Source: a phage. Taken from it: DNA of 64,000 nucleotides. The stretch lies in the NCBI GenBank assembly GCA_017686895.1, contig GCA_017686895.1_4521.1. One strand, written 5' to 3'. Every line of letters begins with the position of its first letter. Within the stretch, counting starts at the first letter, position 1. A model generated the notes under the pieces. It was not told where the DNA came from, made no database searches, and was given only the letters and a program-made list of their open reading frames with translations. Shown here in pieces: positions 434 to 59,282 of this stretch. The position numbers and the translations under genes are program-made.

Positions 434-997
434 ATGAACTTATTCGATGATGACGTCCAGCTTAACGAGCACCAAATTGCATGGAAGTCTAATGACGCTG
501 ATGCGATTCAAAAATGTGCTGATATGTTTAAAGAAAAACCTGAGAATGAATTCTTTAAAATCATTAATGCTATTAATGAAAAGAAATCTATGTCAATTGC
601 TCAGGTCGACTACTCAAAATTTATGGTTGAGAACTCATTATCCCAGTTTCCAGAATGTATGCCAGCTGTTTACATGATGAACTTAGTCGGTTCTGAATTA
701 AGCGATGAAGCGCACTTCAACTATATGATGGCGGCAATTCCGCGTGGTCGTCGATTCTCTAAATGGGCTAAACTAGTCGAAGACACTTCAGAGTTACTAG
801 TTATCAAACTGTTGATGAAACATTACACAATCAACATGAATGACGCCACTGAGTATAAGCGGCTCCTTGAAAAAAATAACAAGTTGCCAATAGTCCTTAA
901 AGAACTGAAGGCCATGGTCACTGATGAATTTCTCAAAGAAGTTACCAAAAACGTGAAAGAACAAAAACAATTTAAAAAATTAGCATTGGAATGGTAA
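434..997 (+). CDS. 62: Clamp loader small subunit gp62
   Basis: 187 aa, same length as T4 gp62; near-identical recalled motifs (DDx[32 protein letters not shown]). Confidence 0.9.
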
Positions 998-999
998 AA

Positions 1000-1368
1000 A
1001 TGATTGAAATTAAATTGAAGAACCCCGAAGATTTTCTGAAAGTCAAAGAGACTTTGACCCGTATGGGCATCGCTAATAACAAGGATAAAGTCCTTTACCA
1101 GTCTTGTCATATCCTCCAAAAGCAAGGTAAATATTACATCGTCCACTTTAAAGAAATGCTGCGTATGGACGGACGTCAGGTTGATATTGATGGTGAAGAC
1201 TATCAGCGACGTGATTCGATTGCTCAGTTGCTTGAAGACTGGGGCTTGATTGTTATTGAAGACTCTGCTCGTGAAGATCTATTTAGCCTGACTAATAACT
1301 TCCGAGTTATCTCTTTTAAACAGAAAGATGACTGGACTTTGAAAGCAAAATATACAATTGGTAATTAA
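1000..1368 (+). CDS. regA: Translational repressor RegA
   Basis: Starts MIEIKLK like T4 RegA (MIEITLK); strong identity through YQSCHILQK...FKEMLRMDGRQV; ATG at 1000 preferred over the track start at 991. Confidence 0.85.
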   Translation: MIEIKLKNPEDFLKVKETLTRMGIANNKDKVLYQSCHILQKQGKYYIVHFKEMLRMDGRQVDIDGEDYQRRDSIAQLLEDWGLIVIEDSAREDLFSLTNNFRVISFKQKDDWTLKAKYTIGN

Positions 1369-1373
1369 AGCAA

Positions 1374-1389
1374 TGGGACTTCGGTCCCA
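1374..1389 (+). other. UUCG-tetraloop hairpin (TGGGAC-TTCG-GTCCCA) after regA
   Basis: Perfect 6-bp stem with TTCG loop directly after regA stop; weak U-tract (ATTTGG). Confidence 0.5.
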
Positions 1390-1421
1390 TTTGGAGTATA
1401 ATGAGTTCATCAACAAACAAA

Positions 1422-1449
1422 AGACAATAACTCGTCTAAAGGAAATTAA
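1422..1449 (+). promoter_or_regulatory. Putative gp43 autogenous translational operator (hairpin plus Shine-Dalgarno)
   Basis: Short stem AGAC/GTCT enclosing 8-nt loop AATAACTC, then SD AAGGAA and ATG 1450; the loop matches what I recall of the T4 gene 43 operator. Confidence 0.45.
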
Positions 1450-4161
1450 ATGAAAGAATTTTACTTAACGGTTGAACAGATTGGTGATTCAATTTTTGAA
1501 CGTTACATCGATTCTAATGGCCGTGAACGTACTCGTGAAGTAGAATATAAACCATCACTGTTTGCTCATTGTCCAGAAAGTCAGGCTACGAAATATTTCG
1601 ATATCTACGGTAAGCCGTGTACTCGTAAGTTGTTCGCTAATATGCGTGATGCCTCCCAATGGATTAAACGCATGGAAGATATCGGACTTGAAGCACTTGG
1701 CATGGACGATTTCAAATTGGCGTATTTGTCTGACACTTATAACTATGAAATCAAATACGACCATACAAAAATTCGTGTGGCTAACTTCGACATCGAAGTA
1801 ACATCTCCGGATGGGTTCCCTGAGCCGTCACAAGCAAAACATCCAATTGATGCTATCACCCATTATGACTCAATTGATGACAGGTTCTACGTATTTGATC
1901 TATTGAATTCTCCATATGGTAATGTAGAAGAATGGTCTATTGAAATCGCTGCTAAGCTTCAAGAACAAGGTGGTGATGAAGTTCCATCTGAAATTATCGA
2001 TAAAATCATTTATATGCCATTCGATAATGAAAAAGAATTGTTGATGGAATATCTCAACTTCTGGCAACAGAAAACTCCTGTCATTTTGACTGGATGGAAC
2101 GTTGAGTCATTTGATATTCCATATGTGTATAACCGAATCAAGAATATTTTTGGCGAATCTACTGCGAAACGTTTATCACCACATCGTAAAACTCGTGTTA
2201 AAGTTATCGAAAACATGTATGGTTCTCGTGAAATCATTACATTGTTCGGTATCTCTGTTCTTGATTATATCGACCTTTACAAAAAATTCTCTTTCACAAA
2301 CCAACCGTCGTATTCTCTGGATTACATTTCAGAATTTGAATTGAATGTCGGTAAACTGAAATATGACGGTCCTATTTCTAAACTTCGTGAAAGTAATCAC
2401 CAACGATATATTTCTTATAACATTATCGACGTGTATCGTGTATTGCAAATTGATGCTAAACGCCAGTTCATCAACTTGAGTTTGGACATGGGTTATTATG
2501 CTAAGATACAGATTCAATCTGTGTTTAGCCCAATTAAAACATGGGATGCTATTATTTTTAATAGCCTTAAAGAGCAGAACAAGGTGATTCCACAAGGTCG
2601 TTCTCACCCGGTTCAACCTTATCCTGGCGCTTTTGTTAAGGAACCTATTCCAAATCGATACAAATATGTAATGAGTTTCGACCTTACATCTCTGTATCCA
2701 AGTATTATTCGCCAAGTGAATATTAGCCCAGAAACAATAGCAGGAACGTTTAAAGTAGCTCCATTGCATGATTATATTAACGCAATCGCTGAACGTCCTT
2801 CAGATGTGTACAGTTGCTCTCCTAACGGCATGATGTATTATAAAGACCGTGACGGTGTAGTTCCAACCGAAATCACCAAGGTCTTTAATCAACGTAAAGA
2901 ACATAAAGGTTATATGCTTGCTGCTCAACGTAACGGTGAAATAATTAAAGAGGCATTGCATAATCCTAATCTTTCTGTTGATGAACCATTAGATGTTGAT
3001 TATCGTTTCGACTTCACTGACGAGATTAAAGAAAAGATTAAAAAGTTGTCTGCTAAATCTCTTAATGAAATGTTGTTTAGAGCTCAACGTACTGAAGTTG
3101 CAGGTATGACTGCCCAAATTAACCGTAAATTGCTCATCAACTCGCTTTATGGTGCACTTGGCAACGTTTGGTTCCGTTATTACGATTTGCGTAATGCTAC
3201 TGCAATCACAACATTTGGTCAAATGGCTTTACAATGGATTGAACGTAAAGTTAATGAATATCTGAATGAAGTTTGTGGTACAGAAGGTGAAGCTTTCGTT
3301 CTTTATGGTGATACAGACTCTATTTACGTATCTGCTGATAAAATTATCGATAAGGTTGGTGAATCTAAATTCCGTGATACCAACCATTGGGTAGACTTCT
3401 TAGATAAGTTCGCACGTGAACGTATGGAACCAGCTATTGATAAAGGTTTCCGTGAAATGTGTGAATACATGAACAATAAACAACACTTAATGTTCATGGA
3501 CCGAGAAGCTATCGCTGGTCCTCCGCTTGGTTCTAAAGGTATTGGTGGATTCTGGACTGGTAAGAAACGTTATGCATTAAACGTGTGGGATATGGAAGGA
3601 ACTAGATACGCTGAGCCTAAACTCAAAATCATGGGTCTAGAGACTCAGAAATCTTCGACCCCTAAAGCAGTACAGAAAGCTCTTAAAGAATGTATTCGTC
3701 GTATGCTTCAAGAAGGTGAAGAATCATTACAAGAATATTTTAAAGAGTTTGAAAAAGAATTCCGTCAATTGAATTATATTAGCATCGCGTCGGTATCTTC
3801 TGCGAATAACATTGCTAAATATGATGTAGGTGGATTCCCTGGTCCTAAATGTCCGTTCCATATTCGTGGAATTCTGACATATAACCGAGCTATCAAAGGT
3901 AATATTGATGCTCCACAAGTTGTAGAAGGTGAAAAAGTATATGTTCTGCCTTTACGTGAAGGAAACCCATTCGGTGATAAATGTATCGCATGGCCTTCTG
4001 GTACTGAAATCACAGATTTAATTAAAGACGACGTACTTCATTGGATGGACTACACTGTTCTCCTTGAGAAGACATTTATTAAACCACTTGAAGGATTCAC
4101 ATCAGCAGCGAAACTCGATTACGAGAAGAAAGCATCTCTGTTCGATATGTTCGATTTTTGA
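1450..4161 (+). CDS. 43: DNA polymerase gp43 (family B)
   Basis: 903 aa; sequence matches recalled RB69 gp43 (MKEFYLTVEQIGDSIFERYIDSNGRERTREVEYKPSLFAHCPES..., exo motifs FDIEV and YNIIDV, YGDTDS, KKRY). Confidence 0.97.
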   Translation: MKEFYLTVEQIGDSIFERYIDSNGRERTREVEYKPSLFAHCPESQATKYFDIYGKPCTRKLFANMRDASQWIKRMEDIGLEALGMDDFKLAYLSDTYNYEIKYDHTKIRVANFDIEVTSPDGFPEPSQAKHPIDAITHYDSIDDRFYVFDLLNSPYGNVEEWSIEIAAKLQEQGGDEVPSEIIDKIIYMPFDNEKELLMEYLNFWQQKTPVILTGWNVESFDIPYVYNRIKNIFGESTAKRLSPHRKTRVKVIENMYGSREIITLFGISVLDYIDLYKKFSFTNQPSYSLDYISEFELNVGKLKYDGPISKLRESNHQRYISYNIIDVYRVLQIDAKRQFINLSLDMGYYAKIQIQSVFSPIKTWDAIIFNSLKEQNKVIPQGRSHPVQPYPGAFVKEPIPNRYKYVMSFDLTSLYPSIIRQVNISPETIAGTFKVAPLHDYINAIAERPSDVYSCSPNGMMYYKDRDGVVPTEITKVFNQRKEHKGYMLAAQRNGEIIKEALHNPNLSVDEPLDVDYRFDFTDEIKEKIKKLSAKSLNEMLFRAQRTEVAGMTAQINRKLLINSLYGALGNVWFRYYDLRNATAITTFGQMALQWIERKVNEYLNEVCGTEGEAFVLYGDTDSIYVSADKIIDKVGESKFRDTNHWVDFLDKFARERMEPAIDKGFREMCEYMNNKQHLMFMDREAIAGPPLGSKGIGGFWTGKKRYALNVWDMEGTRYAEPKLKIMGLETQKSSTPKAVQKALKECIRRMLQEGEESLQEYFKEFEKEFRQLNYISIASVSSANNIAKYDVGGFPGPKCPFHIRGILTYNRAIKGNIDAPQVVEGEKVYVLPLREGNPFGDKCIAWPSGTEITDLIKDDVLHWMDYTVLLEKTFIKPLEGFTSAAKLDYEKKASLFDMFDF

Positions 4162-4167
4162 TATAAT
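4159..4167 (+). promoter_or_regulatory. Candidate extended -10 promoter (TGaTATAAT) for the sugar cassette
   Basis: TGATATAAT overlaps the gene 43 TGA stop, 35 nt before ATG 4202; no good -35 or MotA box seen. Confidence 0.35.
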
Positions 4168-4201
4168 ACCATGGACGGTAAACTAATTAAATGAGAGAAA
4201 T

Positions 4202-4837
4202 ATGAAAACTACACCAATCACTATCGCTATTGACGCAATCGTAAAACAAGCTTCTTCTTTGGCTACTATGGCCAAAGTAATTAGTCAAAACCCTGCTCGT
4301 TATAATGCTATTCTAGAAACTCTTCGACGCCCTGGACTGAGTAATTATGAAAGCCGAGTAATTATTACAGGTGTTGGTAAGAACGCTAATATCGCAACTA
4401 AAGCTTCCGAGACTTTTGCTTCACTAGGTATTCCTAGCATGTATTTGAACACCGGGCATTATTCTCATGGCGACGCAGGGTTTATTGCACCTAATGATGT
4501 ATTAGTTCACATCAGTCGTTCTGGTAAGACTGAAGAAATGATAGGTGTTGCTAAACATCTTCGTATGATTCGTCCTCAGGTTAAACAGATTCTGTTACAT
4601 TGTAACCCTGACATTCCGCAAGAATACGAAGCTCTTTTTGATTATACGTTCTGTACAGGCATCGCGGTAGAGGTTGATGAGAATTCTCTGGCTCCGACCA
4701 TGTCCACTACATTGTTGTTAGCGCTTATCGATACGTTTGCTATCAACCTTTCGTCTGAACGTGGATTTACCTCTAATGACTTCCTTAAGTTCCACCCTGG
4801 TGGTGCACTAGGTGCCATGTTACGAGGCGAACAATGA
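4202..4837 (+). CDS. SIS-domain sugar-phosphate isomerase, arabinose-5-phosphate isomerase (KdsD/GutQ)-like
   Basis: SIS motifs VGKNANIATKASETF, HGDAGF, VLVHISRSGKTEE resemble KdsD-type API rather than GmhA. Confidence 0.7.
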   Translation: MKTTPITIAIDAIVKQASSLATMAKVISQNPARYNAILETLRRPGLSNYESRVIITGVGKNANIATKASETFASLGIPSMYLNTGHYSHGDAGFIAPNDVLVHISRSGKTEEMIGVAKHLRMIRPQVKQILLHCNPDIPQEYEALFDYTFCTGIAVEVDENSLAPTMSTTLLLALIDTFAINLSSERGFTSNDFLKFHPGGALGAMLRGEQ

Positions 4838-4977
4838 AAGCAATAACAATAGGACTTTTACTATTGATGCTTGTCATGACTATCTACTGGAGCTTAACGG
4901 CTCCAGTAATGATTCCGACTCTTATAATCGGATGGATTATGATTGGACTACAAACAAAGTATGAATGCTTTAACTAG
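4834..4977 (+). CDS. Small hydrophobic protein (47 aa), not in ORF track
   Basis: ATG overlaps the upstream TGA (ATGA coupling); translation MKAITIGLLLLMLVMTIYWSLTAPVMIPTLIIGWIMIGLQTKYECFN is almost entirely membrane-like. Confidence 0.35.
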   Translation: MKAITIGLLLLMLVMTIYWSLTAPVMIPTLIIGWIMIGLQTKYECFN

Positions 4978-5018
4978 AATAGTGTACAATACACCTACTT
5001 ACCAATGAGGACCACAAC

Positions 5019-6704
5019 ATGAAAAAAGCTGTTATTCTTGGTGCTGGACTGGCAACTCGTTTGTATCCAATAACGCACCATATTCCTAAGGTGCTTGTTA
5101 ACTATAAACAAGACACTATTCTGAGCAATTTGTATACAATTTATTCTGACCTTGGTGCAGATGAAATTATTGTAGTAGTTCATTCAAAATTTGTTGAAAC
5201 TGTTCGAGCTTATTGTGAGCAAGAAGGGTTCAATGTGACTATTCGTACAGTTGATGAAGCGTATGGTTCTGCTTATGCTCTTGCTAAATTATACAAAGAT
5301 TTAGATGGCCATAACGTAATTGTTAACTGGTGTGATATTATTCCTGATTTTGGTTCATGGTCTTGGAATGTTAACGCAATCTATGTTAAGGGTGATGAAT
5401 GTCGATATAATTTCGATGGTGAAAATATCACTAACGTAGGTTCAACAGGCGGTAATGTTGTAGGAATTTATCAGTTCAAAGACTGGGAATTCTATATGGG
5501 TTCTACTGATGAGGAAATTCATGAATACTGCAAAGGGCGTGATTTCGTAGAATTCCTTTACGGCAGTGCATTCAATAAATCAGAGCTTATGAATCTAATT
5601 GATTTAGGTGATATGCCTAAACTTGAAAAAGCTCATGAAGTTCGTGAACTTAATCGTAGTTTTAATGCAGTTGAAATTGGTGAAGAAACTGTAACTAAAT
5701 TCGCATTAACCGAACAGGGACGAGCTCTTCAGAAAGATGAGATTTCGTGGTATCTTAAAGTGAAATCAGATTCAGTTCCTCAGTTAGTTTCTGTTAATGA
5801 AAATAACTTTGAAATGGAACGCATTAAAGGTAAGCCAGCATTTGAATATATTAAATCCAAATCAAGTCTTGCTCGTCCACAAATTGTTGATGCAATTTTA
5901 GATGCACTGAAATTCAGCACAGACACTTATTTTGTAAGTCCTGAAACTGTTCGTCGTGATTTCACTAAAGAATTCTATACGAAAGTTATTGATCGTTGTG
6001 AAAGCATTCAACCATTGATTGATTCATTTGGTAAAATCACACATGTGAACTACACTAAGATTGGACGTCTGAAGCCAATGCTGAAACAAGCTTTAGAACA
6101 CCTTATTCGTTATCATAACCGTTCTCAGGGACAGTACTCTGTTATTCATGGTGACCCGAACTTCAGTAATACTATGATTACTGATAACGGCGAAGTCAAG
6201 TTTATCGACCCTCGTGGATATTTTGGCGAAACCAAGATTTACGGGCCAAAATTGTACGATGAAGCTAAAGTGCTTTATGCTGTTTCAGGTTATGATGAAT
6301 TCAATGCTAATCCGACCTGGGGACAGTTTACTATTGATGAAACAACTTGTAATGTGACTATTAACATCAATCCATTAATTTACAAATATGGAAAGATGAG
6401 TTCGTTTAACGAGTATCATCATTTGGCGGTGGCAATTATCTGGATTGCATTAGGTGGTTATTTCAAGAATAATCCACTTAAAGCGGTAGCCGCATATTAT
6501 AAAGGTATGGAACTTCTGACTAAGCAATTACGCAACATGGGCCGTGTACTTCAAGACGGCTCTATTAGTTATGACGTAGCAGAACCTGTAACGGCTACTC
6601 TGATTACAAAAAATCCTGGTAAATGGGTACTAACTGATAAAGAAACTGGTGTTTCCTATCGTCCAATCGGTGGCGATATCACTCATCAATGGGAACGAAT
6701 CTAA
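5019..6704 (+). CDS. Bifunctional sugar-1-phosphate nucleotidyltransferase / APH-like sugar kinase
   Basis: N-terminal ILGAGLATRL nucleotidyltransferase motif; C-terminal HGDPNFSN...IDPRG kinase motifs (aminoglycoside/choline kinase fold). Confidence 0.7.
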   Translation: MKKAVILGAGLATRLYPITHHIPKVLVNYKQDTILSNLYTIYSDLGADEIIVVVHSKFVETVRAYCEQEGFNVTIRTVDEAYGSAYALAKLYKDLDGHNVIVNWCDIIPDFGSWSWNVNAIYVKGDECRYNFDGENITNVGSTGGNVVGIYQFKDWEFYMGSTDEEIHEYCKGRDFVEFLYGSAFNKSELMNLIDLGDMPKLEKAHEVRELNRSFNAVEIGEETVTKFALTEQGRALQKDEISWYLKVKSDSVPQLVSVNENNFEMERIKGKPAFEYIKSKSSLARPQIVDAILDALKFSTDTYFVSPETVRRDFTKEFYTKVIDRCESIQPLIDSFGKITHVNYTKIGRLKPMLKQALEHLIRYHNRSQGQYSVIHGDPNFSNTMITDNGEVKFIDPRGYFGETKIYGPKLYDEAKVLYAVSGYDEFNANPTWGQFTIDETTCNVTININPLIYKYGKMSSFNEYHHLAVAIIWIALGGYFKNNPLKAVAAYYKGMELLTKQLRNMGRVLQDGSISYDVAEPVTATLITKNPGKWVLTDKETGVSYRPIGGDITHQWERI

Positions 6705-7090
6705 TGCACCGTGTAGAAAACATGCTTAATCTTTGTTTTGATGTCGATGATTGTATAACAGAGTGGAATAACAATCGTGATTACGTGAACTTCAAACCAG
6801 ACGTCGAAATGGTGTCTGCCATTAATGCCCTGTATGATGCAGGGCATACCATAACGCTTTACACTGCTCGTGGTATGAAGTCAGTAGGTCCTGGTCGTAT
6901 AGCAATTGACATTCTCCCAAGTCTGATTCAGAACTTGGCAAACATTGGCTTGAAGTACCATAATTTGCTAACACATAAACCAGTATATGATTGGATTATC
7001 GACGACAAAGCTATGCGTCCTGACGAATTCAAAGCTCTTATGAATAAAGGCGAATTCGAAACATTTAAATCATATAAACCGAATCTATAA
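6704..7090 (+). CDS. HAD-superfamily phosphatase-like protein
   Basis: FDVDDCIT (DxD motif I), LYTAR, K...DWIIDDK; TAATG overlap with upstream gene; track start 6689 is an alternative. Confidence 0.5.
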   Translation: MHRVENMLNLCFDVDDCITEWNNNRDYVNFKPDVEMVSAINALYDAGHTITLYTARGMKSVGPGRIAIDILPSLIQNLANIGLKYHNLLTHKPVYDWIIDDKAMRPDEFKALMNKGEFETFKSYKPNL

Positions 7091-7136
7091 TAATTTAAGT
7101 AAGACCTGCAAAAACCATCGCATCAATTAACGCGAG

Positions 7137-8306
7137 ATGCAAAAAATGAATACTTTTAAAATCGGAACGAATTTTGATTTAGCTCTTCTTGATAAAATCG
7201 TAGAGCTCAATAAAACCTATCCTAATAGCTTGATAAACGAAGTATATGGCTCTACAAGAGAAATGGCTTTTGTAGCAGCCAGACCTGATTTTAGGCTTCC
7301 TGACGTTGACAAAAAGATGTTAGAAGATTACGTTAAACGTTGTAACGAATTAGGTATTTGCTTTAACTATACACTCAACACGATAAATCCTGGTTCAAAA
7401 AGAGAACTAGTTGAGTGGAAGAAGAAAGCTATTCAGGATTATGTTCAGTATCTTTGGTCAATAGGCGTATGGCGTATTACTATCGCTAACCCTGTTGTTA
7501 TGGAAATTGTTCGTGAAGTCAATAAAGATATTGAGATTGAAGTTTCAACAATTCTACATGTCGATGCGGTAACTCAAATCAAATACTTACATGACCAATA
7601 TAACATCAAAAAGGTCTGTTGCGGAATTCATAAGAACCGTTCAGTTTCTTTCCTGAAGCGTGCAGCAGAGTTTTGCAATAAGAACAATATAATATTTGAA
7701 GTTCTTGTAAATGAGTTCTGTTCTAATGCTGGTAAAGGGTATACAACACATTGTAGTTATCGTGACTCTTGCTATATTTTCCATAGTACTGATGTTACAG
7801 CTGATGATGCTAAATCCTTAAATGGATATCCAATGCAACACTGCATTAAAGCTCGTGATACAGACCCATTTAACTGGTTGAGAACTCGTTTTGTTCGTCC
7901 TCAAGATTTGAAACTTTATAATGATATTGGTATCACTCAATTCAAAGTTTCAGGACGTACAGGTAGCACAGACTACATTTTGAAAGTTCTTGAAGCATAC
8001 GCTTCTGAAAAGTTTGAAGGTAATTTGTTAGAACTGTGGAAGCCTTTAGAGACTATTTTCACTCTTGAAAATGAGACTGAGTTTTCACATACAGTAAATA
8101 TTGAAACCTCTTTGTTAGATGGCTTTTTAGAAAAAAGGTGGTTCAGACATCCAGATTTTGATTGTGCTAATGAAATCTGTGGGTCAACGTGTACATATTG
8201 TGAAAGGTATTATAAACGTCAATTATCTAAAAACGGGTTAGCAGAAAACTCCATATCTATTATTGATATAACTAACTCTGATGACGCTTTGAGGTACCCG
8301 GAATGA
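7137..8306 (+). CDS. Cys-rich protein of unknown function; weak resemblance to peptidase U32-family TIM-barrel proteins
   Basis: 389-aa ORF in the cassette; motifs NEVYGS, FKVSGRTGSTDY and clustered Cys (CxxxxGxGxxxxC, CANEICGSTCTYC); family assignment from memory only. Confidence 0.5.
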   Translation: MQKMNTFKIGTNFDLALLDKIVELNKTYPNSLINEVYGSTREMAFVAARPDFRLPDVDKKMLEDYVKRCNELGICFNYTLNTINPGSKRELVEWKKKAIQDYVQYLWSIGVWRITIANPVVMEIVREVNKDIEIEVSTILHVDAVTQIKYLHDQYNIKKVCCGIHKNRSVSFLKRAAEFCNKNNIIFEVLVNEFCSNAGKGYTTHCSYRDSCYIFHSTDVTADDAKSLNGYPMQHCIKARDTDPFNWLRTRFVRPQDLKLYNDIGITQFKVSGRTGSTDYILKVLEAYASEKFEGNLLELWKPLETIFTLENETEFSHTVNIETSLLDGFLEKRWFRHPDFDCANEICGSTCTYCERYYKRQLSKNGLAENSISIIDITNSDDALRYPE

Positions 8307-8542
8307 TTTCTAGAAAAAGTTTTAATTATAAACTTAACGAAGAGATTTTGACTATGAAACTGAACACTAACGAACAAATTCTTAAAAAGGCCCTTATGGG
8401 CCTGTTTGAAACCAAAGCGGCTAAAGTGATTAAAGAACCTGTTCAATTGGAATACTACACTGATGCATTCCTTCATAGTGTTCTTGGAAGTATAGATTCT
8501 GAAGCTTTACGTTATATCAACATTGTCAAGAAATTCAAATAA
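8303..8542 (+). CDS. Hypothetical protein
   Basis: 79-aa ORF, ATGA overlap with upstream gene. Confidence 0.45.
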   Translation: MISRKSFNYKLNEEILTMKLNTNEQILKKALMGLFETKAAKVIKEPVQLEYYTDAFLHSVLGSIDSEALRYINIVKKFK

Positions 8543-8565
8543 GCTTTATGAATTGAGTATATAAT
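8541..8565 (+). promoter_or_regulatory. Candidate middle promoter (MotA-box-like AAGCTTTAT plus TATAAT)
   Basis: MotA-like box about 12 bp upstream of TATAAT (8560-8565), 20 nt before ATG 8585. Confidence 0.3.
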
Positions 8566-8584
8566 AAATTGTATTGAGGTAAAT

Positions 8585-9301
8585 ATGGGAAAACATAACA
8601 CAATGAAATATATCAAAGCCGCAGATTTTCAAACCGCATTTAAAGCAGTCAATCGTGAAATTTTAGAAAACCCCGAATTCGTAACTGATTCTCGTATTGG
8701 ACGTTGTAATGAAATTGGGTCTATGACAGTAGTTGTTGACACTCCATCATCATTCAAAATGACCGACCCACGTATTAACCGCATCTCTTATGAATATGCC
8801 GAAGACTTCTGGAAGTTTATGATTTCTGGTGGTACCAACGCAGAAGAAGCGTTTAAGGCATATCCTAATGTCGCTAAATTTATTTCTAAACCAAAATCAG
8901 ATGTTTTGCCGGCGAACTTCAACACTTTCTATGGTCCTCGCATTGCGGCCCAATTACCAACTCTTCTAAAAGAACTTAAAGAAAAACCTAACTCTCGAAG
9001 AGTTGTGTTCCAAATTCTAGAAAGTTCTGATCAGGCTTTGCTTGATTCGGACGAAACACTTGAATATCCATGTACTGACTCAGTAACTTATTATATTCGT
9101 GATGGTAAGCTTTATACCCACTGTCATATGCGTTCTCAGAACTGTGCTGTTGTTATGCAGTTGGATTTTTATCTCCAAGGAAAATTACTTCATTATATCG
9201 CTAACGAATGCGGTGTAGAAGTTGGTGATTATACTCATACCATGGTAAGTGCCCATGTGTTTGAACGTGATTTTGATTATGTTAAAGGATTCCTTGACTA
9301 A
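8585..9301 (+). CDS. 42: Thymidylate-synthase-fold deoxycytidylate hydroxymethylase-like enzyme (gene 42 position)
   Basis: TS-fold motifs NSRRVVFQI, YPCTDSVTYYIRDG (catalytic Cys), Asp at the pyrimidine-specificity position (QLDFY) as in dCMP hydroxymethylase; more divergent from recalled T4 gp42 than neighbouring core genes. Confidence 0.6.
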   Translation: MGKHNTMKYIKAADFQTAFKAVNREILENPEFVTDSRIGRCNEIGSMTVVVDTPSSFKMTDPRINRISYEYAEDFWKFMISGGTNAEEAFKAYPNVAKFISKPKSDVLPANFNTFYGPRIAAQLPTLLKELKEKPNSRRVVFQILESSDQALLDSDETLEYPCTDSVTYYIRDGKLYTHCHMRSQNCAVVMQLDFYLQGKLLHYIANECGVEVGDYTHTMVSAHVFERDFDYVKGFLD

Positions 9302-10200
9302 TGGCTATTTTCCGCGTACCAATCTTGAGTATGCGGTCTTATGAAACTGGACAGTATGCTATCCTTAAGGATGGCAACTTCCAACTTCATTTGCACCGTG
9401 CTAATCCAGGTGATGTGATTACATATCCACGTAATGCATCTGATATTAAAGAATGCGAACGTCTTTTCCCAGAATTTAAGTTTGTTCCATTATGGTATAA
9501 AGATAACGCGTATAACACTCGTAAATATTTCTGGTCTGAAAATGAATTTGTGGTTGATTCATTAATTGCTTATTATGATTGTGATTTTCTAATCACAGAT
9601 ATCACCGGATATGACGGCGCTTTTGATGTGGAATTCAATTTCAATATCACTGCAGACCCTAATAAACCACGTTTTTATATTGACGAATTCTTAAAAACTG
9701 ATATGTTGTCGGTTAATCGTTCACTTCAAACTACTGTGTTGAATGAACGTCAAAAAGAAGTGCTGGTTAACGCAGGTGCAGATGGTAATAAGATTATCGT
9801 AACGCAGAAAGTTATACGTCCTTCCATCATGCAGCGTCTTGTAGGTGATTTGGCTCCTATTCATCTAGATGGTATTTTTCATCCATTTCGAATTAGTGAC
9901 CCGTGCTATCGTTTTGAACAAGTGGTTGAATGTGCAATTCAATTAGGCCAACCGCTTTATATAACCGATCCAAATAATAGCTTCGACAGAAATAAGTATC
10001 CTGAAGAAGCATTGATTCGAATTTTTAAACCAACTAAAACTGAGTACTATCAAATTCTTAAAGGACGTCCGAAGATTCAATATTTCGAAAATCCTGAAGA
10101 AGTATTCCATCCAGGTCTTGGTGAGTTCATCTACTTTAATGCTTTAATTTCTTCGCCGTATAATATACCTAAATATGAAGATGTCGTAATCGAGGAATAA
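9301..10200 (+). CDS. Hypothetical protein (occupies the T4 beta-glucosyltransferase position)
   Basis: 299-aa ORF, TAATG coupled to the hydroxymethylase gene; no recognisable motif. Confidence 0.55.
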   Translation: MAIFRVPILSMRSYETGQYAILKDGNFQLHLHRANPGDVITYPRNASDIKECERLFPEFKFVPLWYKDNAYNTRKYFWSENEFVVDSLIAYYDCDFLITDITGYDGAFDVEFNFNITADPNKPRFYIDEFLKTDMLSVNRSLQTTVLNERQKEVLVNAGADGNKIIVTQKVIRPSIMQRLVGDLAPIHLDGIFHPFRISDPCYRFEQVVECAIQLGQPLYITDPNNSFDRNKYPEEALIRIFKPTKTEYYQILKGRPKIQYFENPEEVFHPGLGEFIYFNALISSPYNIPKYEDVVIEE

Positions 10201-10201
10201 A

Positions 10202-10750
10202 ATGGCTAAAATTATTTTAGTAGATGGCCCGGATAATGCTGGTAAAACAACTTTCATTAATGACATAATGGAAATTAGTGAAAGATATGTAAAGATTGAT
10301 TTCCCTAAACGAACAGTTGATGGACGTTTCGATGTTAAGTCTCGAAATGAAGTTGGCTGTTTCGAAACTATGTTGAATTATTTAGACCCTACTAAGATTT
10401 ATCTATTAGACCGTGGATATATTAGTAACTGGGTTTATGGACGTATTCGACAAGATGCGGACTCGGTTCTTGACGTTTATGAACAGGATTATGTTCGTCT
10501 TTGCCAAAACCATGATGTGTTCACAATTATTTTAACACGTAACGAAATGACTGAAAGTTTTGAAGACGACCTTATTACTTTGTCTTCATTCGGTTTTAAT
10601 ACAGTAATTTCACATTTTGAAGAGTTTGCAATTCATAACGAAATCCAAACGTATCAATTACTTAATCATGATGGTGCTAACAAAGTTATAGGATTTAATG
10701 CAAGCGAACGTAATAATTTGATTACAGAAATCATCAAATGGGCTCGTTAA
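10202..10750 (+). CDS. P-loop NTPase, nucleotide/nucleoside kinase-like
   Basis: Walker A GPDNAGKTT near N-terminus; 182 aa. Confidence 0.55.
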   Translation: MAKIILVDGPDNAGKTTFINDIMEISERYVKIDFPKRTVDGRFDVKSRNEVGCFETMLNYLDPTKIYLLDRGYISNWVYGRIRQDADSVLDVYEQDYVRLCQNHDVFTIILTRNEMTESFEDDLITLSSFGFNTVISHFEEFAIHNEIQTYQLLNHDGANKVIGFNASERNNLITEIIKWAR

Positions 10751-10767
10751 GAGCCATTTAAAGTTTT

Positions 10768-10795
10768 AAATGCTGTATAACCCTTAGTATATAAT
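10768..10795 (+). promoter_or_regulatory. Candidate middle promoter for uvsX (MotA-box-like AAATGCTGTA plus TATAAT)
   Basis: Box 12 bp upstream of TATAAT 10790-10795. Confidence 0.4.
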
Positions 10796-10848
10796 CATCT
10801 TATCTTTTAAACATGAGTAAAATATAATGATGCCTATGGAAAAATACA

Positions 10849-12021
10849 ATGTCTGATTTAAAATCTCGTCTGATTAAAGCTTCTACTTCTAAAATGACTG
10901 CAGACTTGACTAAGTCTAAGCTGTTTAATAATCGTGATGAAGTCCCTACTCGTATTCCAATGTTGAATATTGCACTAGGTGGTGCACTGAATGCAGGGTT
11001 GCAATCAGGCTTAACTATTTTTGCTGCTCCTTCTAAACATTTTAAAACGTTGTTTGGGCTGACCATGGTTGCAGCATATATGAAGAAATATAAAGATGCA
11101 ATCTGTTTGTTTTATGACTCAGAATTCGGTGCTTCAGAATCTTACTTCCGTTCGATGGGTGTTGATTTAGACCGTGTAGTTCATACTCCGATTCAATCCG
11201 TCGAACAACTTAAAGTTGATATGACTAATCAGCTTGACGCGATTGAACGCGGCGATAAAGTTATTATCTTTATCGATTCAATCGGTAATACTGCATCTAA
11301 GAAAGAAACCGAAGATGCGTTGAACGAGAAAGTTGTAGGTGATATGTCTCGTGCTAAGGCACTTAAATCTCTTTTCCGTATTGTGACTCCTTATCTGACT
11401 ATTAAAGATATTCCGTGTGTTGCAATTAACCATACTGCAATGGAAATTGGCGGATTGTATCCTAAAGAGATTATGGGCGGTGGTACAGGTATTCTTTATT
11501 CCGCCAACACGGTATTTTTTATCTCTAAACGTCAGGTTAAAGAAGGTACAGAATTGACCGGTTATGACTTCACGTTGAAAGCAGAAAAATCTCGTACAGT
11601 TAAAGAGAAATCTACTTTCCCGATCACGGTTAATTTCGACGGTGGTATCGACCCATTCAGTGGCTTGTTAGAAATGGCAACTGAAATCGGTTTTGTGGTT
11701 AAGCCTAAAGCTGGTTGGTATGCTCGCGAATTCCTTGACGAAGAAACAGGTGAAATGATTCGTGAAGAAAAATCATGGCGTGCTAAAGCTACTGATTGTG
11801 TAGAATTCTGGGGACCTTTGTTTAAACATAAGCCTTTCCGTGACGCAATTGAAACTAAATATAAACTAGGTGCTATCTCTTCTATTAAAGAAGTTGATGA
11901 CGCTGTTAACGACCTTATTAATTGCAAAGCAACAACTAAAGTTCCGGTTAAAACTTCTAATGCTCCGTCTGCAGCAGATATAGAAAACGACCTTGACGAA
12001 ATGGAAGATTTCGATGAATAA
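10849..12021 (+). CDS. uvsX: Recombinase UvsX (RecA-like)
   Basis: 390 aa; syntenic with T4 uvsX; RecA-type Walker motifs. Confidence 0.92.
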   Translation: MSDLKSRLIKASTSKMTADLTKSKLFNNRDEVPTRIPMLNIALGGALNAGLQSGLTIFAAPSKHFKTLFGLTMVAAYMKKYKDAICLFYDSEFGASESYFRSMGVDLDRVVHTPIQSVEQLKVDMTNQLDAIERGDKVIIFIDSIGNTASKKETEDALNEKVVGDMSRAKALKSLFRIVTPYLTIKDIPCVAINHTAMEIGGLYPKEIMGGGTGILYSANTVFFISKRQVKEGTELTGYDFTLKAEKSRTVKEKSTFPITVNFDGGIDPFSGLLEMATEIGFVVKPKAGWYAREFLDEETGEMIREEKSWRAKATDCVEFWGPLFKHKPFRDAIETKYKLGAISSIKEVDDAVNDLINCKATTKVPVKTSNAPSAADIENDLDEMEDFDE

Positions 12022-21195: not shown

Positions 21196-21777
21196 ATGAC
21201 ATGTCAATCTGAACTTCAAGAACGCGAATATCTCGCAGCACTAATTGATGATAAATTCACTAAACAAGAACAAAACATTCTCTGGGCTTGCACTGATTAT
21301 AAGGAAGACCCGGATTTCCACTATGAATTAGACCATCTTGTTCGTAAGCATATGACTTCTACAGTACCAGTAGAACTCTACCGTGGTGTAACTCCAGAAG
21401 AAGTAGAACGTCTTTCCCTTCTTTCTGTTGGATGTCATTGGTCTCCCGGACGAGTAACATCGTTTACAACAGACTTTGGTACGGCCAGACAGTTCTCTGG
21501 GAGTTGGGAATATCAAACGTACACTATTCTTAGTCTCAGGAATGCTCCGTTCATTTTCGATTACTACCAAAACATGGTTAACATTGTACTCGCCGGAAAG
21601 AACCCTAAGCATGTTATGGAAGAAAAACGTGTTGACGTCCTAGATATGATTGAATCTGAACAAGAATACATGGTCTCAGGTATCTCTAGATTTGAGATTG
21701 TAGAAATTGAAGACTTAGAATATGACCCTTTATCTCGGTTATACAAAATCATTCATTTGAAAATGTTGAATTTTTAG
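21196..21777 (+). CDS. modB: ADP-ribosyltransferase, ModB-like
   Basis: R-S-E ART motifs: LYRG, SFTTDF, ESEQEYMV; T4 order modB-modA in this direction. Confidence 0.6.
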   Translation: MTCQSELQEREYLAALIDDKFTKQEQNILWACTDYKEDPDFHYELDHLVRKHMTSTVPVELYRGVTPEEVERLSLLSVGCHWSPGRVTSFTTDFGTARQFSGSWEYQTYTILSLRNAPFIFDYYQNMVNIVLAGKNPKHVMEEKRVDVLDMIESEQEYMVSGISRFEIVEIEDLEYDPLSRLYKIIHLKMLNF

Positions 21778-21834
21778 TGTACAAACTCTTCCGATGATGA
21801 TACTATACCTTTATCAACCACAGGAGAAACCTAA

Positions 21835-22443
21835 ATGTTTATGCCGTATAACGAGTGTGAAATTGAAGAAATGGTTCGTCGTGCTCAAAACCCCGAATAT
21901 CAAGATGTATTGCAGTACGAAATTGATAGTCAATTCAGCGACATTGAACAAAGTGTACTGTGGCAGTGTATGGAAAACAAGCCAGTCTGTATTCAACAGG
22001 AGTTAAGTTCAATCGTTCGTAGAAATTGGACGTCTTCTGTTCCTGAGACAATGTATCGTGGAATCTCTAAGAAAACTATGGCCGCACTCGATGATAAAGG
22101 CATTGGTAGTATTATTAAATTTGACAGAGTAATGAGCTTCAGCCCAGTGTTCGGTGTAGCACGTAACTTTGCTTCGTATAATTTTTACGGAACATTTAAT
22201 ATGTTCTGCATCAAAGATGCACCGTTTGCTTTCAACTTCCGTGAACATATGCTTAACATGATTCTGGCTGCGCCATCTTGTGAGTTCAATGGAGCTTTCC
22301 CTGAAGCGACAAGACGGTCTAATGCTAGACTTATATCTGACGAATGTGAATTTATGCTCCCTATAGGGACTACACTGCGTGTAGATTCTATTATTCAAGA
22401 TGGACGTTATACAATCTGGAATCTGTCTATTGTCAGTTACTGA
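21835..22443 (+). CDS. modA: ADP-ribosyltransferase, ModA-like
   Basis: MYRG, MSFSPVFG, SDECEFML; paralog of the preceding gene. Confidence 0.6.
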   Translation: MFMPYNECEIEEMVRRAQNPEYQDVLQYEIDSQFSDIEQSVLWQCMENKPVCIQQELSSIVRRNWTSSVPETMYRGISKKTMAALDDKGIGSIIKFDRVMSFSPVFGVARNFASYNFYGTFNMFCIKDAPFAFNFREHMLNMILAAPSCEFNGAFPEATRRSNARLISDECEFMLPIGTTLRVDSIIQDGRYTIWNLSIVSY

Positions 22444-58421: not shown

Positions 58422-59282
58422 ATGAAACAATACCAAGATTTAATTAAAAATATCCTTGAAAACGGTTACGAAACAGACGACCGTACAGGCACAGGAACAA
58501 TTGCTCTGTTCGGAACTAAATTACGTTGGGACCTGACTAAAGGATTCCCTGCAGTAACAACTAAGAAATTAGCATGGAAAGCTTGTATTGCCGAGTTATT
58601 GTGGTTCATGTCCGGTTCTACTAATGTTAATGAATTACGTCTTCGTACTCATGGTAGTCTAATTGAAGGTAAAACTATTTGGGACGACAACTATGAAAAT
58701 CAGGCAAAAGACCTTGGATATCATAGCGGCGAACTTGGTCCTATTTATGGTAAGCAATGGCGTGATTTTGGCGGTGTAGACCAATTGGTCAAAACTATCG
58801 ACCGCATTAAAGCTCTTCCTAATGATCGTCGTCAAATAGTTTCTGCATGGAATCCGGCCGAAATAAATCAAATGGCTCTTCCTCCTTGCCATATGTTCTA
58901 TCAGTTCAATGTGCGTAATGGTCATCTTGATTTACAATGGTACCAGAGAAGTGTTGATGTTTTCTTGGGTTTGCCATTCAACATTGCCTCGTACGCTGCC
59001 TTGACTCATATTGTAGCTAAGATGTGTAATCTTATCCCGGGTGATTTAGTGTTCTCAGGCGGCAACACGCATATCTACATCAATCATGTAGAACAATGCA
59101 AAGAAGTTCTTCGTCGTGAGCCTAAAGAACTGTGTGAACTTAAAATTGATTGGCCTGAAGGATTCTCTGATTGGAGCACGACATTACAGCTTCATTGGGT
59201 AACAGAGCATATGAATCCGAGTGATTTCATTCTTAAAAATTACGAATCACATCCAGCTATCAAAGCTAAAATGGCGGTATAA
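58422..59282 (+). CDS. td: Thymidylate synthase (uninterrupted)
   Basis: 286 aa; PPCH catalytic Cys, DRRQIVSAWNP, classic TS motifs; single continuous ORF. Confidence 0.93.
   Translation: MKQYQDLIKNILENGYETDDRTGTGTIALFGTKLRWDLTKGFPAVTTKKLAWKACIAELLWFMSGSTNVNELRLRTHGSLIEGKTIWDDNYENQAKDLGYHSGELGPIYGKQWRDFGGVDQLVKTIDRIKALPNDRRQIVSAWNPAEINQMALPPCHMFYQFNVRNGHLDLQWYQRSVDVFLGLPFNIASYAALTHIVAKMCNLIPGDLVFSGGNTHIYINHVEQCKEVLRREPKELCELKIDWPEGFSDWSTTLQLHWVTEHMNPSDFILKNYESHPAIKAKMAV

Follow-up and report, generated by a model that had tools for sequence, protein, structure and literature searches.

The analysis of a 64,000-nucleotide stretch of phage DNA (assembly GCA_017686895.1, contig GCA_017686895.1_4521.1; hereafter the window, meaning the whole stretch) suggests a function for the open reading frame (ORF) at 7137..8306 on the plus strand, which lies in a DNA-arabinosylation cassette and encodes a protein of the Peptidase U32 superfamily homologous to gp50 of phage RB69. 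The product of this gene, the U32 protein, is probably a prephenate-dependent, O2-independent pyrimidine C5 hydroxylase, a role proposed from comparative genomics and by analogy with characterised relatives. The observations that carry this proposal are family membership, fold, conserved cysteines and Lys/Arg residues, gene linkages and distribution; Fe-S binding, prephenate use, the substrate, action at the nucleotide level and the anaerobic role are what we infer from them. More broadly, we see about an even chance that phages have recruited prephenate-dependent U32 chemistry for hypermodified DNA, with aerobic and anaerobic routes in RB69-like phages and a sole entry to O-glycosylated, perhaps O-methylated, 5-hydroxypyrimidines in uncultured phages of anoxic habitats, some of which would use a chorismate mutase or DAHP synthase of their own to draw oxygen atoms from the host shikimate pathway. 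Arabinosyl-5-hydroxycytosine itself is already known from papers of 2025-2026; the role for gp50 is the new proposal.

The ORF runs from ATG to TGA over 389 amino acids (aa), and its product is 99.2% identical to RB69ORF050c (gp50) and is assigned by Pfam to PF01136, by PHROG to family 5757 and by fold to the solved structure 5D88. A first-pass annotation had described it as a Cys-rich 389-aa protein with several short motifs, and every string quoted there is present in the translation, in which we located NEVYGS (aa 34-39), CCG (aa 161-163), CSNAGKGYTTHC (aa 195-206), FKVSGRTGSTDY (aa 269-280) and CANEICGSTCTYC (aa 343-355), together with 13 cysteines at positions 69, 75, 161, 162, 180, 195, 206, 212, 236, 343, 348, 352 and 355. 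Homologs were recovered in 222 phage records by tblastn (all at ≥80% identity), as 282 proteins in a search of 5.8 billion proteins (PF01136 was found in all listed homologs except three) and as 1729 cluster representatives at E≤1e-3 in an exhaustive profile search (494 at E≤1e-30). Because of this spread of homologs and the invariance of their cysteines, the ORF is, on comparative grounds, a genuine gene and not a chance reading frame. Two in-frame ATGs stand nine bases apart at 7137 and 7146, with GAG 9 nt upstream of the latter, and a start at 7146 agrees with the N-terminus of most homologs (MNxFK...); the product could therefore be 386 aa long, and the 7137 start of the deposited 389-aa protein is perhaps three codons early.

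The weak resemblance to the peptidase U32 TIM-barrel/iron-sulfur (Fe-S) family that the first-pass annotation had put forward speculatively is borne out. The PF01136 score of 42.2 bits (E = 7.4e-11) exceeds the curated gathering threshold of 22.4; the match takes in aa 97-289 and profile positions 2-192 of 233, and this Peptidase_U32 stretch (7425..8003, plus strand), with its alternating strands and helices in the predicted secondary structure, corresponds to the second half of the TIM barrel. The structural comparison that the same annotation had called for gave 5D88 (Mk0906), a solved U32 protein with a TIM barrel, as the top fold match of an AlphaFold2 (AF2) model with a predicted local distance difference test score (pLDDT) of 94. 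This placement is further strengthened by the alignment of the KxxGR and YxxxC motifs, and both sequence and predicted structure make the protein a divergent member of the Peptidase U32 (PF01136) superfamily. A sequence search of the PDB with the ORF product returned nothing meaningful.

Residue conservation was examined in 107-121 family members (46-100% identity) and in a wider set of 133 full-length representatives. In the former, nine cysteines never vary (C161, C195, C206, C212, C236, C343, C348, C352 and C355) and a tenth, C180, is kept in 98%; in the latter, C236, K270 and R274 are present in 133 of 133, N81 in 132 and C195 in 131. The central group of cysteines (C161, C180, C195, C206, C212 and C236; 7617..7844, plus strand) is a putative U32-type [4Fe-4S] site, as judged from conservation and from the alignment of C212 with RlhA C176 and UbiV C180, the second Fe-S cysteine in each (Y-R-D-S-C212-Y vs Y-S-G-Q-C176-Y vs Y-S-A-R-C180-F). 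Its spacing, C195-X10-C206-X5-C212-X23-C236 plus C161 and C180, differs from the canonical one; C206 and C212 would take the places of canonical Cys1 and Cys2 and lie one residue closer to each other, and UbiU, too, has a displaced fourth cysteine (C232). The stretch FKVSGRTGSTDY (7941..7976, plus strand), which holds the invariant K270 and R274, is the counterpart of the U32 'KIEGR' signature: F-K270-V-S-G273-R274-T aligns to LKIEGRTKS of TrhP, FKIEGRYKD of RlhA and VKIEGRQRS of UbiU with Ser/Thr in place of Glu, and the family-profile stretch FKITGRTGS falls on the KIEGR strand of all three. A further group, CX4CX3CX2C (C343, C348, C352 and C355, with Y354; 8163..8201, plus strand), lies near the C-terminus and is kept in 110-116 of the 133 representatives of the wider family, while the remaining ones have gaps or are truncated there; its conservation makes it a putative second metal or Fe-S site. 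The alignments thus place two conserved cysteine groups in a single U32 chain, a pattern from which Fe-S binding by the phage protein is predicted.

Assignment to a known subfamily was considered and rejected in each case. The RlhA subfamily does not fit, since the phage protein matches PF01136 only, has no DUF3656 and is 389 aa long vs 653; nor does the UbiU subfamily, given 18.4 bits against a cut-off of 440 for the UbiU model NF047963, the single weak match in the NCBIfam scan, and a 6% probability when the family profile was compared by hhalign with the single E. coli UbiU. No curated TrhP model was matched, and the family profile reached only 16 bits on TrhP over three short stretches, which makes TrhP the best of the E. 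coli paralogs (10.7 bits on RlhA); against the four E. coli paralogs only short stretches align, the diagnostic motifs among them. A radical S-adenosylmethionine (SAM) enzyme was likewise rejected: C348-X3-C352-X-Y-C355 resembles CX3CX2C, but it is C-terminal, is accompanied by a fourth conserved cysteine (C343) and comes with no PF04055 match.

Gene linkage was examined at about 55 further loci with U32 homologs of 44-58% identity from IMG/VR, Logan/ENA/JGI and GTDB scans, at which ORFs were called and clustered and six-frame translations were scanned with profiles from window proteins. Clustering of the U32 proteins at 70% identity gave 28 family lineages, the T4-like one and about 27 others. 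A chorismate mutase and/or DAHP synthase gene adjoins the U32 gene in six of the 28, the T4-like lineage among them, where 13 of 15 loci have a type II chorismate mutase ORF (78-132 aa) after the U32 gene and within about 350 bp of its stop, either directly or behind a small ORF like the 79-aa one of the window. These T4-like enzymes score 40.9-46.7 bits against the Pfam CM_2 cut-off of 27, and the exceptions are Mosigvirus, the window's genus, and Klebsiella phage Marfa. A 107-aa chorismate mutase (55.1 bits) follows the U32 gene in a jumbo-phage group on 190-290-kb contigs, a DAHP synthase::chorismate mutase fusion stands one gene away at loci L036, L038, L039 and L067, a DAHP synthase follows directly at L008 and L024, and a chorismate mutase lies beside the U32 gene also at L063, L068 and L069. 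The E. coli residues R11, R28, K39, S84 and Q88, which are catalytic, are kept throughout the nine aligned phage chorismate mutases, as is E52 in the T4-like ones. RlhA-dependent 5-hydroxycytidine (ho5C) and TrhP-dependent 5-hydroxyuridine (ho5U) require prephenate synthesis (PMC5727448, PMC6599085), and 18O labelling identified prephenate as the oxygen donor of the UbiU/V pathway (PMC10990095). Since chorismate mutase makes the prephenate that U32 hydroxylases need, its linkage to the gene lends indirect support to prephenate use by the phage protein as well. As to position, the chorismate mutase genes of L013-L025 lie at about 11130-11900 (L020, 11158-11502), and that of Serratia phage CHI14 (record 21734-22078; L062 5658-6002) is deposited as 'hypothetical protein'.

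Where those 13 loci have their chorismate mutase, the window has a 79-aa ORF with no assigned function (8303..8542, plus strand; PHROG 8601). Its ATG overlaps the U32 stop (ATGA at 8303-8306), so that translational coupling of the two ORFs is suggested. No Pfam or NCBIfam match was found for it; homologs occur at L010, L019, L021 and L025, with 42-54% identity at the last three, all of which have both this ORF and a chorismate mutase. The ORF was considered as a chorismate mutase itself and rejected, because comparison of the homologs and the Pfam scan place it in a different family.

The distribution of the gene among T4-like phages was then set against that of the cassette. Hosts of the 222 isolate phages with the U32 gene belong to Escherichia, Shigella, Klebsiella, Serratia, Proteus, Yersinia, Enterobacter, Providencia, Edwardsiella, Pectobacterium, Kosakonia and Shewanella, that is, all are facultative anaerobes (Enterobacterales and Shewanella); Acinetobacter is not among the ten commonest names in these records, each of which has at least three. 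AfhE, the kinase/nucleotidyltransferase fusion of the cassette, is found in 369 records, including 57 Acinetobacter phages, one Pseudomonas phage and about 40 additional Escherichia phages. Acinetobacter phage AM101 and the E. coli Dhakavirus Bp7 have AfhE, the haloacid dehalogenase (HAD) phosphatase, the ThyA homolog, the glycosyltransferase and the kinase without a U32 gene, AM101 with an annotated arabinose-5-phosphate isomerase as well, and their HAD phosphatase runs straight into the ThyA homolog or the kinase. Since these cassettes run without it, the U32 gene is, by this comparison, an optional insert, dispensable for arabinosylation as such. A rule by which it would be absent only from phages of aerobes was rejected, as E. 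coli Dhakaviruses also lack it. At the Bp7 locus (L059, 6440-11151) the order is AfhE, HAD phosphatase, kinase, ThyA homolog and glycosyltransferase, with neither U32 nor chorismate mutase, and this phage offers a natural control for the oxygen hypothesis.

Between T4-like genera, identity is 82-89% for the U32 protein, 74-82% for the ThyA homolog, 42-73% for AfhE, 51-72% for the glycosyltransferase and 37-73% for the kinase, and in distant phages it is 45-56% for U32 vs 26-31% for AfhE and 22-27% for the glycosyltransferase. Judged by these identities, the U32 protein is the most conserved protein of the cassette and is under strong constraint. The HAD phosphatase and U32 genes of Serratia phage CHI14 are separated by a segB-like gene for a homing endonuclease (L062, 3852-4490), which shows that this junction is an insertion site for mobile elements.

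In the wider set, what accompanies the U32 gene is mostly machinery for nucleotides and DNA glycosylation: a glycosyltransferase and a P-loop nucleotide kinase each lie near it in 18 of the 28 lineages, a dCMP deaminase or dUTPase/DCD in 12, AfhE in nine, arabinose-5-phosphate isomerase in seven and a ThyA-like gene in two (T4-like and L026). The last of these was considered as a 5-hydroxy-dCMP (5hodCMP) synthase and rejected; because D169 and N177 are kept, it is taken as an ordinary dUMP-type thymidylate synthase. Within 10 kb of the U32 gene, then, a ThyA of the 5hodCMP-synthase type was found in none of the roughly 27 non-T4 lineages, and this inverse relation between the two enzymes speaks for the hydroxylase proposal. 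Three layouts recur, namely glycosyltransferase, isomerase, AfhE, HAD phosphatase and U32; kinase, glycosyltransferase and U32 followed by a DnaE-type polymerase; and glycosyltransferase, kinase, uracil-DNA glycosylase (UDG)-polymerase, dCMP deaminase and U32, the last on megaphage contigs of up to 466 kb. At least nine lineages have kinase, glycosyltransferase and U32 at a locus without AfhE or isomerase, and the glycosyltransferase there is homologous over its full length to the first arabinosyltransferase of the window (9301-10200; 24-27% identity over about 300 aa), whose BLAST matches are the glycosyltransferases of L008, L009, L027, L031, L032, L040, L043 and L052. At L009 and L032 the gene immediately after U32 encodes a TET-associated glycosyltransferase (TAGT; PF20691, 33.9 bits in L009; L009 11098-12000), with dUTPase/DCD and UDP-galactopyranose mutase further on, an arrangement whose gene content suggests a galactofuranose-type DNA modification on a hydroxyl that U32 would make. 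Contigs of metagenome-assembled genomes with U32 homologs are mostly binned with strict anaerobes, host assignment of metagenomic contigs being by binning only. A family of about 200 aa that adjoins the U32 gene (f5) was considered as a partner protein and rejected; with its DVDGVL HAD motif and its AfhF position it was taken as a phosphatase.

Other U32 neighbourhoods were noted along the way. The megaphage region at L001 (a 466-kb JGI contig; 944-11086) and L002-L004 has no arabinose genes and carries MazG/dUTPase-like, radical SAM/SPASM, 402-aa glycosyltransferase-like (weak QTMAN_N match) and thymidylate-kinase-like genes, followed by UDG, a DnaE-type polymerase (UDG-fused in L002), dCMP deaminase and then U32. 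A four-gene cassette ending in a U32 homolog of 44-46% identity was found at L073 (3044-7137; Phocaeicola faecalis FXJYN30E22 scaffold 17), L070, L072, in part at L066 and at the IMG/VR locus L049, the genes before U32 being GP88 (PF17338), a guanylate kinase::SAM methyltransferase fusion (425-443 aa) and a protein of about 265 aa with a faint HhH/AGOG glycosylase match. By analogy with B. subtilis yrrMNO, this cassette may hydroxylate and then O-methylate a nucleotide or DNA. At L035 the U32 gene is accompanied by genes for a P-loop kinase, a methyltransferase and a dCMP deaminase.

At 98-99% identity the window matches Mosigvirus genomes (TH12, p000v and HY126, for example), and its cassette is bounded by the genes for DNA polymerase (1450-4161) and uvsX (10849-12021). 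All cassette genes lie on the plus strand. The UDP-arabinose supply genes span 4202..7090 and were assigned by Pfam and PHROG: arabinose-5-phosphate isomerase (4202-4837), the AfhE-like kinase/nucleotidyltransferase fusion (5019-6704) and the AfhF-like HAD phosphatase (6689-7090). After them come U32 and the 79-aa ORF, then, 280 bp beyond the U32 gene, the homolog of RB69 gp48 (8585..9301; Pfam Thymidylat_synt, 57 bits), a ThyA-family protein of the 5-hydroxy-dCMP synthase type, followed by the first DNA arabinosyltransferase (RB69 gp46:47 homolog; 9301..10200; PHROG 3891 and Table 1 of PMC13326640) and a thymidylate-kinase-like P-loop nucleotide kinase (RB69 gp45 homolog; 10202..10750; PHROG 761). 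The ThyA homolog carries the substitutions L143E, taken from the alignment, and D169N and N177D, for which positions 169 and 177 were read in ungapped register from R166-S167 because MAFFT set both one column off. A second ThyA-family gene (58422-59279, plus strand) has the canonical QRSVD...PFN motif and is an ordinary thymidylate synthase (td), distinct from that at 8585-9301.

In RB69 DNA all cytosine is replaced by mono- or di-arabinosyl 5-hydroxycytosine (Lee et al., NAR 2026, PMC13326640). There, gp48 makes 5-hydroxy-dCMP, binds a flavin that is loosely held and needs reduction, and incorporates 18O from O2; together with a dNMP kinase alone it yields 5-hydroxydeoxycytidine (5hodC) in E. 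coli (PMC13326640). In the account that PMC13326640 gives of He et al. 2026, the isomerase, the AfhE-like kinase/pyrophosphorylase and the AfhF-like phosphatase suffice for UDP-arabinose, in agreement with the first-pass claim that the other cassette genes already cover arabinose activation. Acinetobacter phage DLP3 makes tri-arabinosyl-5-hydroxycytosine (tri-arabinosyl-5hoC) without a U32 gene (PMC13326640). As for gp50, it appears in PMC13326640 as a table row only ('sugar or heterocycle reductase', best structural match 5D88) and is absent from the text, and PMC13390438 refers to an 'epimerase' in the cluster. GenBank names for the gene are 'peptidase', 'putative protease', 'collagenase-like protease' or hypothetical. 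A literature search without He et al. 2026 or Mahler et al. 2025 in its scope found no paper tying Afh genes, phage U32 or phage chorismate mutase and prephenate together.

The mechanism that we propose is modelled on the scheme of PMC10990095: the Fe-S centres of the U32 enzyme would oxidise the pyrimidine ring, which would then be quenched with a hydroxyl set free from prephenate. The product would be 5-hydroxy-dCMP made without O2, most likely from dCMP, which would then be phosphorylated, incorporated into DNA and arabinosylated by the known kinase, polymerase and arabinosyltransferase route. In an RB69-like phage this route would run parallel to the flavin- and O2-dependent ThyA-type synthase, lead to the same product and sustain the pathway during anaerobic growth of the enteric host. 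It would be useful in anoxia because the ThyA-type enzyme cannot work without O2 and because the phage, its cytosine being fully replaced, could turn to no other C nucleotide for DNA synthesis. T4 has a further aerobic/anaerobic duplication of this kind in its NrdAB/NrdDG pair. In many uncultured phages without the ThyA-type enzyme, U32 would be the only hydroxylase making an acceptor for DNA glycosylation, and where a dCMP deaminase or dUTPase is adjacent the substrate might be dUMP instead. Action on the nucleotide is modestly favoured over action on DNA, since the U32 gene is accompanied by a dedicated kinase and dCTP is excluded by the phage. A genome of 168 kb and 37% GC contains about 62,000 C; at an assumed burst of 100-200, a rough estimate comes to 6-12 million hydroxylations per cell; at one prephenate for each of them, a phage-encoded chorismate mutase or DAHP synthase becomes understandable.

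Several points weigh against this proposal. The canonical CX6CX15CX3-4C motif is absent as such from the phage protein, and hydroxylation in vitro has so far been demonstrated for no U32 protein (PMC10990095). The 64-kb window contains no chorismate mutase (none at E<10 with a profile from phage chorismate mutases), so that prephenate would have to come from the PheA/TyrA of the host. The U32 gene is also missing from about 40 records of the E. coli Dhakavirus type, and its absence is thus not limited to phages of aerobes. The finding that the roughly 27 non-T4 lineages have no 5hodCMP-synthase-type ThyA near U32 holds for 10 kb on either side of the gene and not for whole genomes. Moreover, AfhE in nine and the isomerase in seven of the 28 lineages make a role on the sugar side compatible with the linkage. 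Such a role, as a reductase, epimerase or other enzyme tailoring the arabinose donor or a second sugar, would also accord with the labels in Table 1 of PMC13326640 and in PMC13390438 and with a gene that has the sugar genes on one side and the ThyA homolog on the other. We nevertheless regard it as unlikely: UDP-arabinose is already covered by the isomerase, AfhE and AfhF (He et al. 2026, as cited in PMC13326640), mono- to tri-arabinosyl-5hoC is made by phages without a U32 gene, and the chorismate mutase/DAHP synthase linkage would be left unexplained. The kinase-glycosyltransferase-U32 lineages, at least nine in number, do without AfhE or isomerase, some of them having UDP-galactopyranose mutase and TAGT instead. 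To our knowledge, no U32 member acts on sugars, which also counts against this role.

Incidental placement in the cassette would have to be assumed if the protein were an RNA hydroxylase like TrhP or RlhA, tuning translation in infection through ho5U in tRNA or ho5C in rRNA of host or phage. The characterised nucleic-acid U32 enzymes do act on RNA, and the chorismate mutase linkage would suit a U32 enzyme of any kind that depends on prephenate. The tRNAs encoded by T4-like phages also speak for this possibility. It is nonetheless quite unlikely, given that neither DUF3656 nor an RlhA or TrhP equivalog model was matched, that the steady neighbours are DNA-precursor enzymes and DNA glycosyltransferases and not translation genes, and that E. 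coli already has TrhP, TrhO and RlhA. A different way to tie the protein to 5-hydroxy-dCMP is as an Fe-S redox partner of the ThyA-type synthase, for instance in flavin reduction, with no hydroxylase activity itself. The loosely held flavin of that enzyme needs reduction (PMC13326640), two conserved cysteine groups suit electron transfer, and the genes are 280 bp apart. This reading fails mainly because U32 and ThyA-type genes mostly do not co-occur, most U32 lineages having no ThyA homolog nearby and many ThyA-bearing phages no U32; with the sufficiency of the ThyA homolog and dNMP kinase for 5hodC in E. coli (PMC13326640), it is highly improbable. A collagenase-type protease, as the GenBank names have it, has almost no probability: the annotation is inherited only from a family name derived from PrtC, every lineage examined places the gene in a setting of nucleotide metabolism, and the invariant cysteine groups fit Fe-S binding in a family whose characterised members are linked to hydroxylation.

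If the hydroxylase proposal is correct, gp50 gains a function, and phages of gut bacteria, which are often anoxic, would have an oxygen-free bypass where the one known hydroxylase needs O2. Prephenate as oxygen donor would be extended from RNA and quinones to DNA precursors, and the presence of chorismate mutase and DAHP synthase genes in phages would be explained. Considering the number of cytosines per genome, the phage enzyme is likely much more active than its bacterial counterparts that act on RNA and may offer a tractable system for in vitro reconstitution of U32 activity. The proposal would also predict an oxygen-dependent host range or fitness of phage-therapy candidates without U32 (Dhakaviruses and Acinetobacter phages), and it would single out hundreds of uncultured phage lineages in which new 5-hydroxypyrimidine DNA modifications are likely.

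Among known systems, RlhA (E. coli YdcP), which is required for 5-hydroxycytidine at C2501 of 23S rRNA, shares with the phage protein the U32 motif, KxxGR and the proposed C5-cytosine chemistry. RlhA depends on Fe-S biogenesis and on the synthesis of prephenate, and cysteines in both its U32 motif and its C-terminal region are essential (PMC5727448); the phage protein likewise has two cysteine groups; it differs in that RlhA has 653 aa, a DUF3656 unique to it (PMC5727448) and a ribosome-precursor substrate, whereas the phage protein has 389 aa, another cysteine spacing and a presumed deoxynucleotide or DNA substrate. The logic proposed for the phage is that of TrhP (E. coli YegQ) and TrhO, a prephenate-dependent U32 enzyme and an O2-dependent enzyme that lead to the same ho5U34 (PMC6599085; PMC12783734), although their substrate is tRNA and the O2 partner is the rhodanese-type TrhO and not a flavin-bound ThyA homolog. 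UbiU and UbiV, with UbiT, are U32 Fe-S proteins that form the anaerobic counterpart of the flavin/O2 hydroxylases UbiI, UbiH and UbiF and use prephenate as donor, with two [4Fe-4S] clusters, one in each protein (PMC10990095); the phage protein has its two conserved cysteine groups in one chain, and unlike it UbiU/UbiV act as a heterodimer on a lipid quinone and require the UbiT carrier. Mk0906 of Methanopyrus kandleri (PDB 5D88), which has no assigned function, is 11-14% identical to the phage protein and, with 247 residues, is without the C-terminal helical region and its Cys4 group.

The ThyA-type 5-hydroxy-dCMP synthase (RB69 gp48, DLP3 gp80 and the HY126 enzyme) shares with U32 the proposed product, the place in the pathway and the cassette, yet has an unrelated fold, uses flavin, takes its oxygen from O2 and occurs without U32 in Acinetobacter phages and Dhakaviruses. 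In their order, a base oxidant followed by a TAGT-family glycosyltransferase, the TET/JBP and TAGT modules of phages resemble U32 at L009 and L032. TET enzymes are Fe(II)/2-oxoglutarate/O2 dioxygenases that convert 5-methylcytosine to 5-hydroxymethylcytosine in DNA, unlike the chemistry that we propose for the phage U32 protein.

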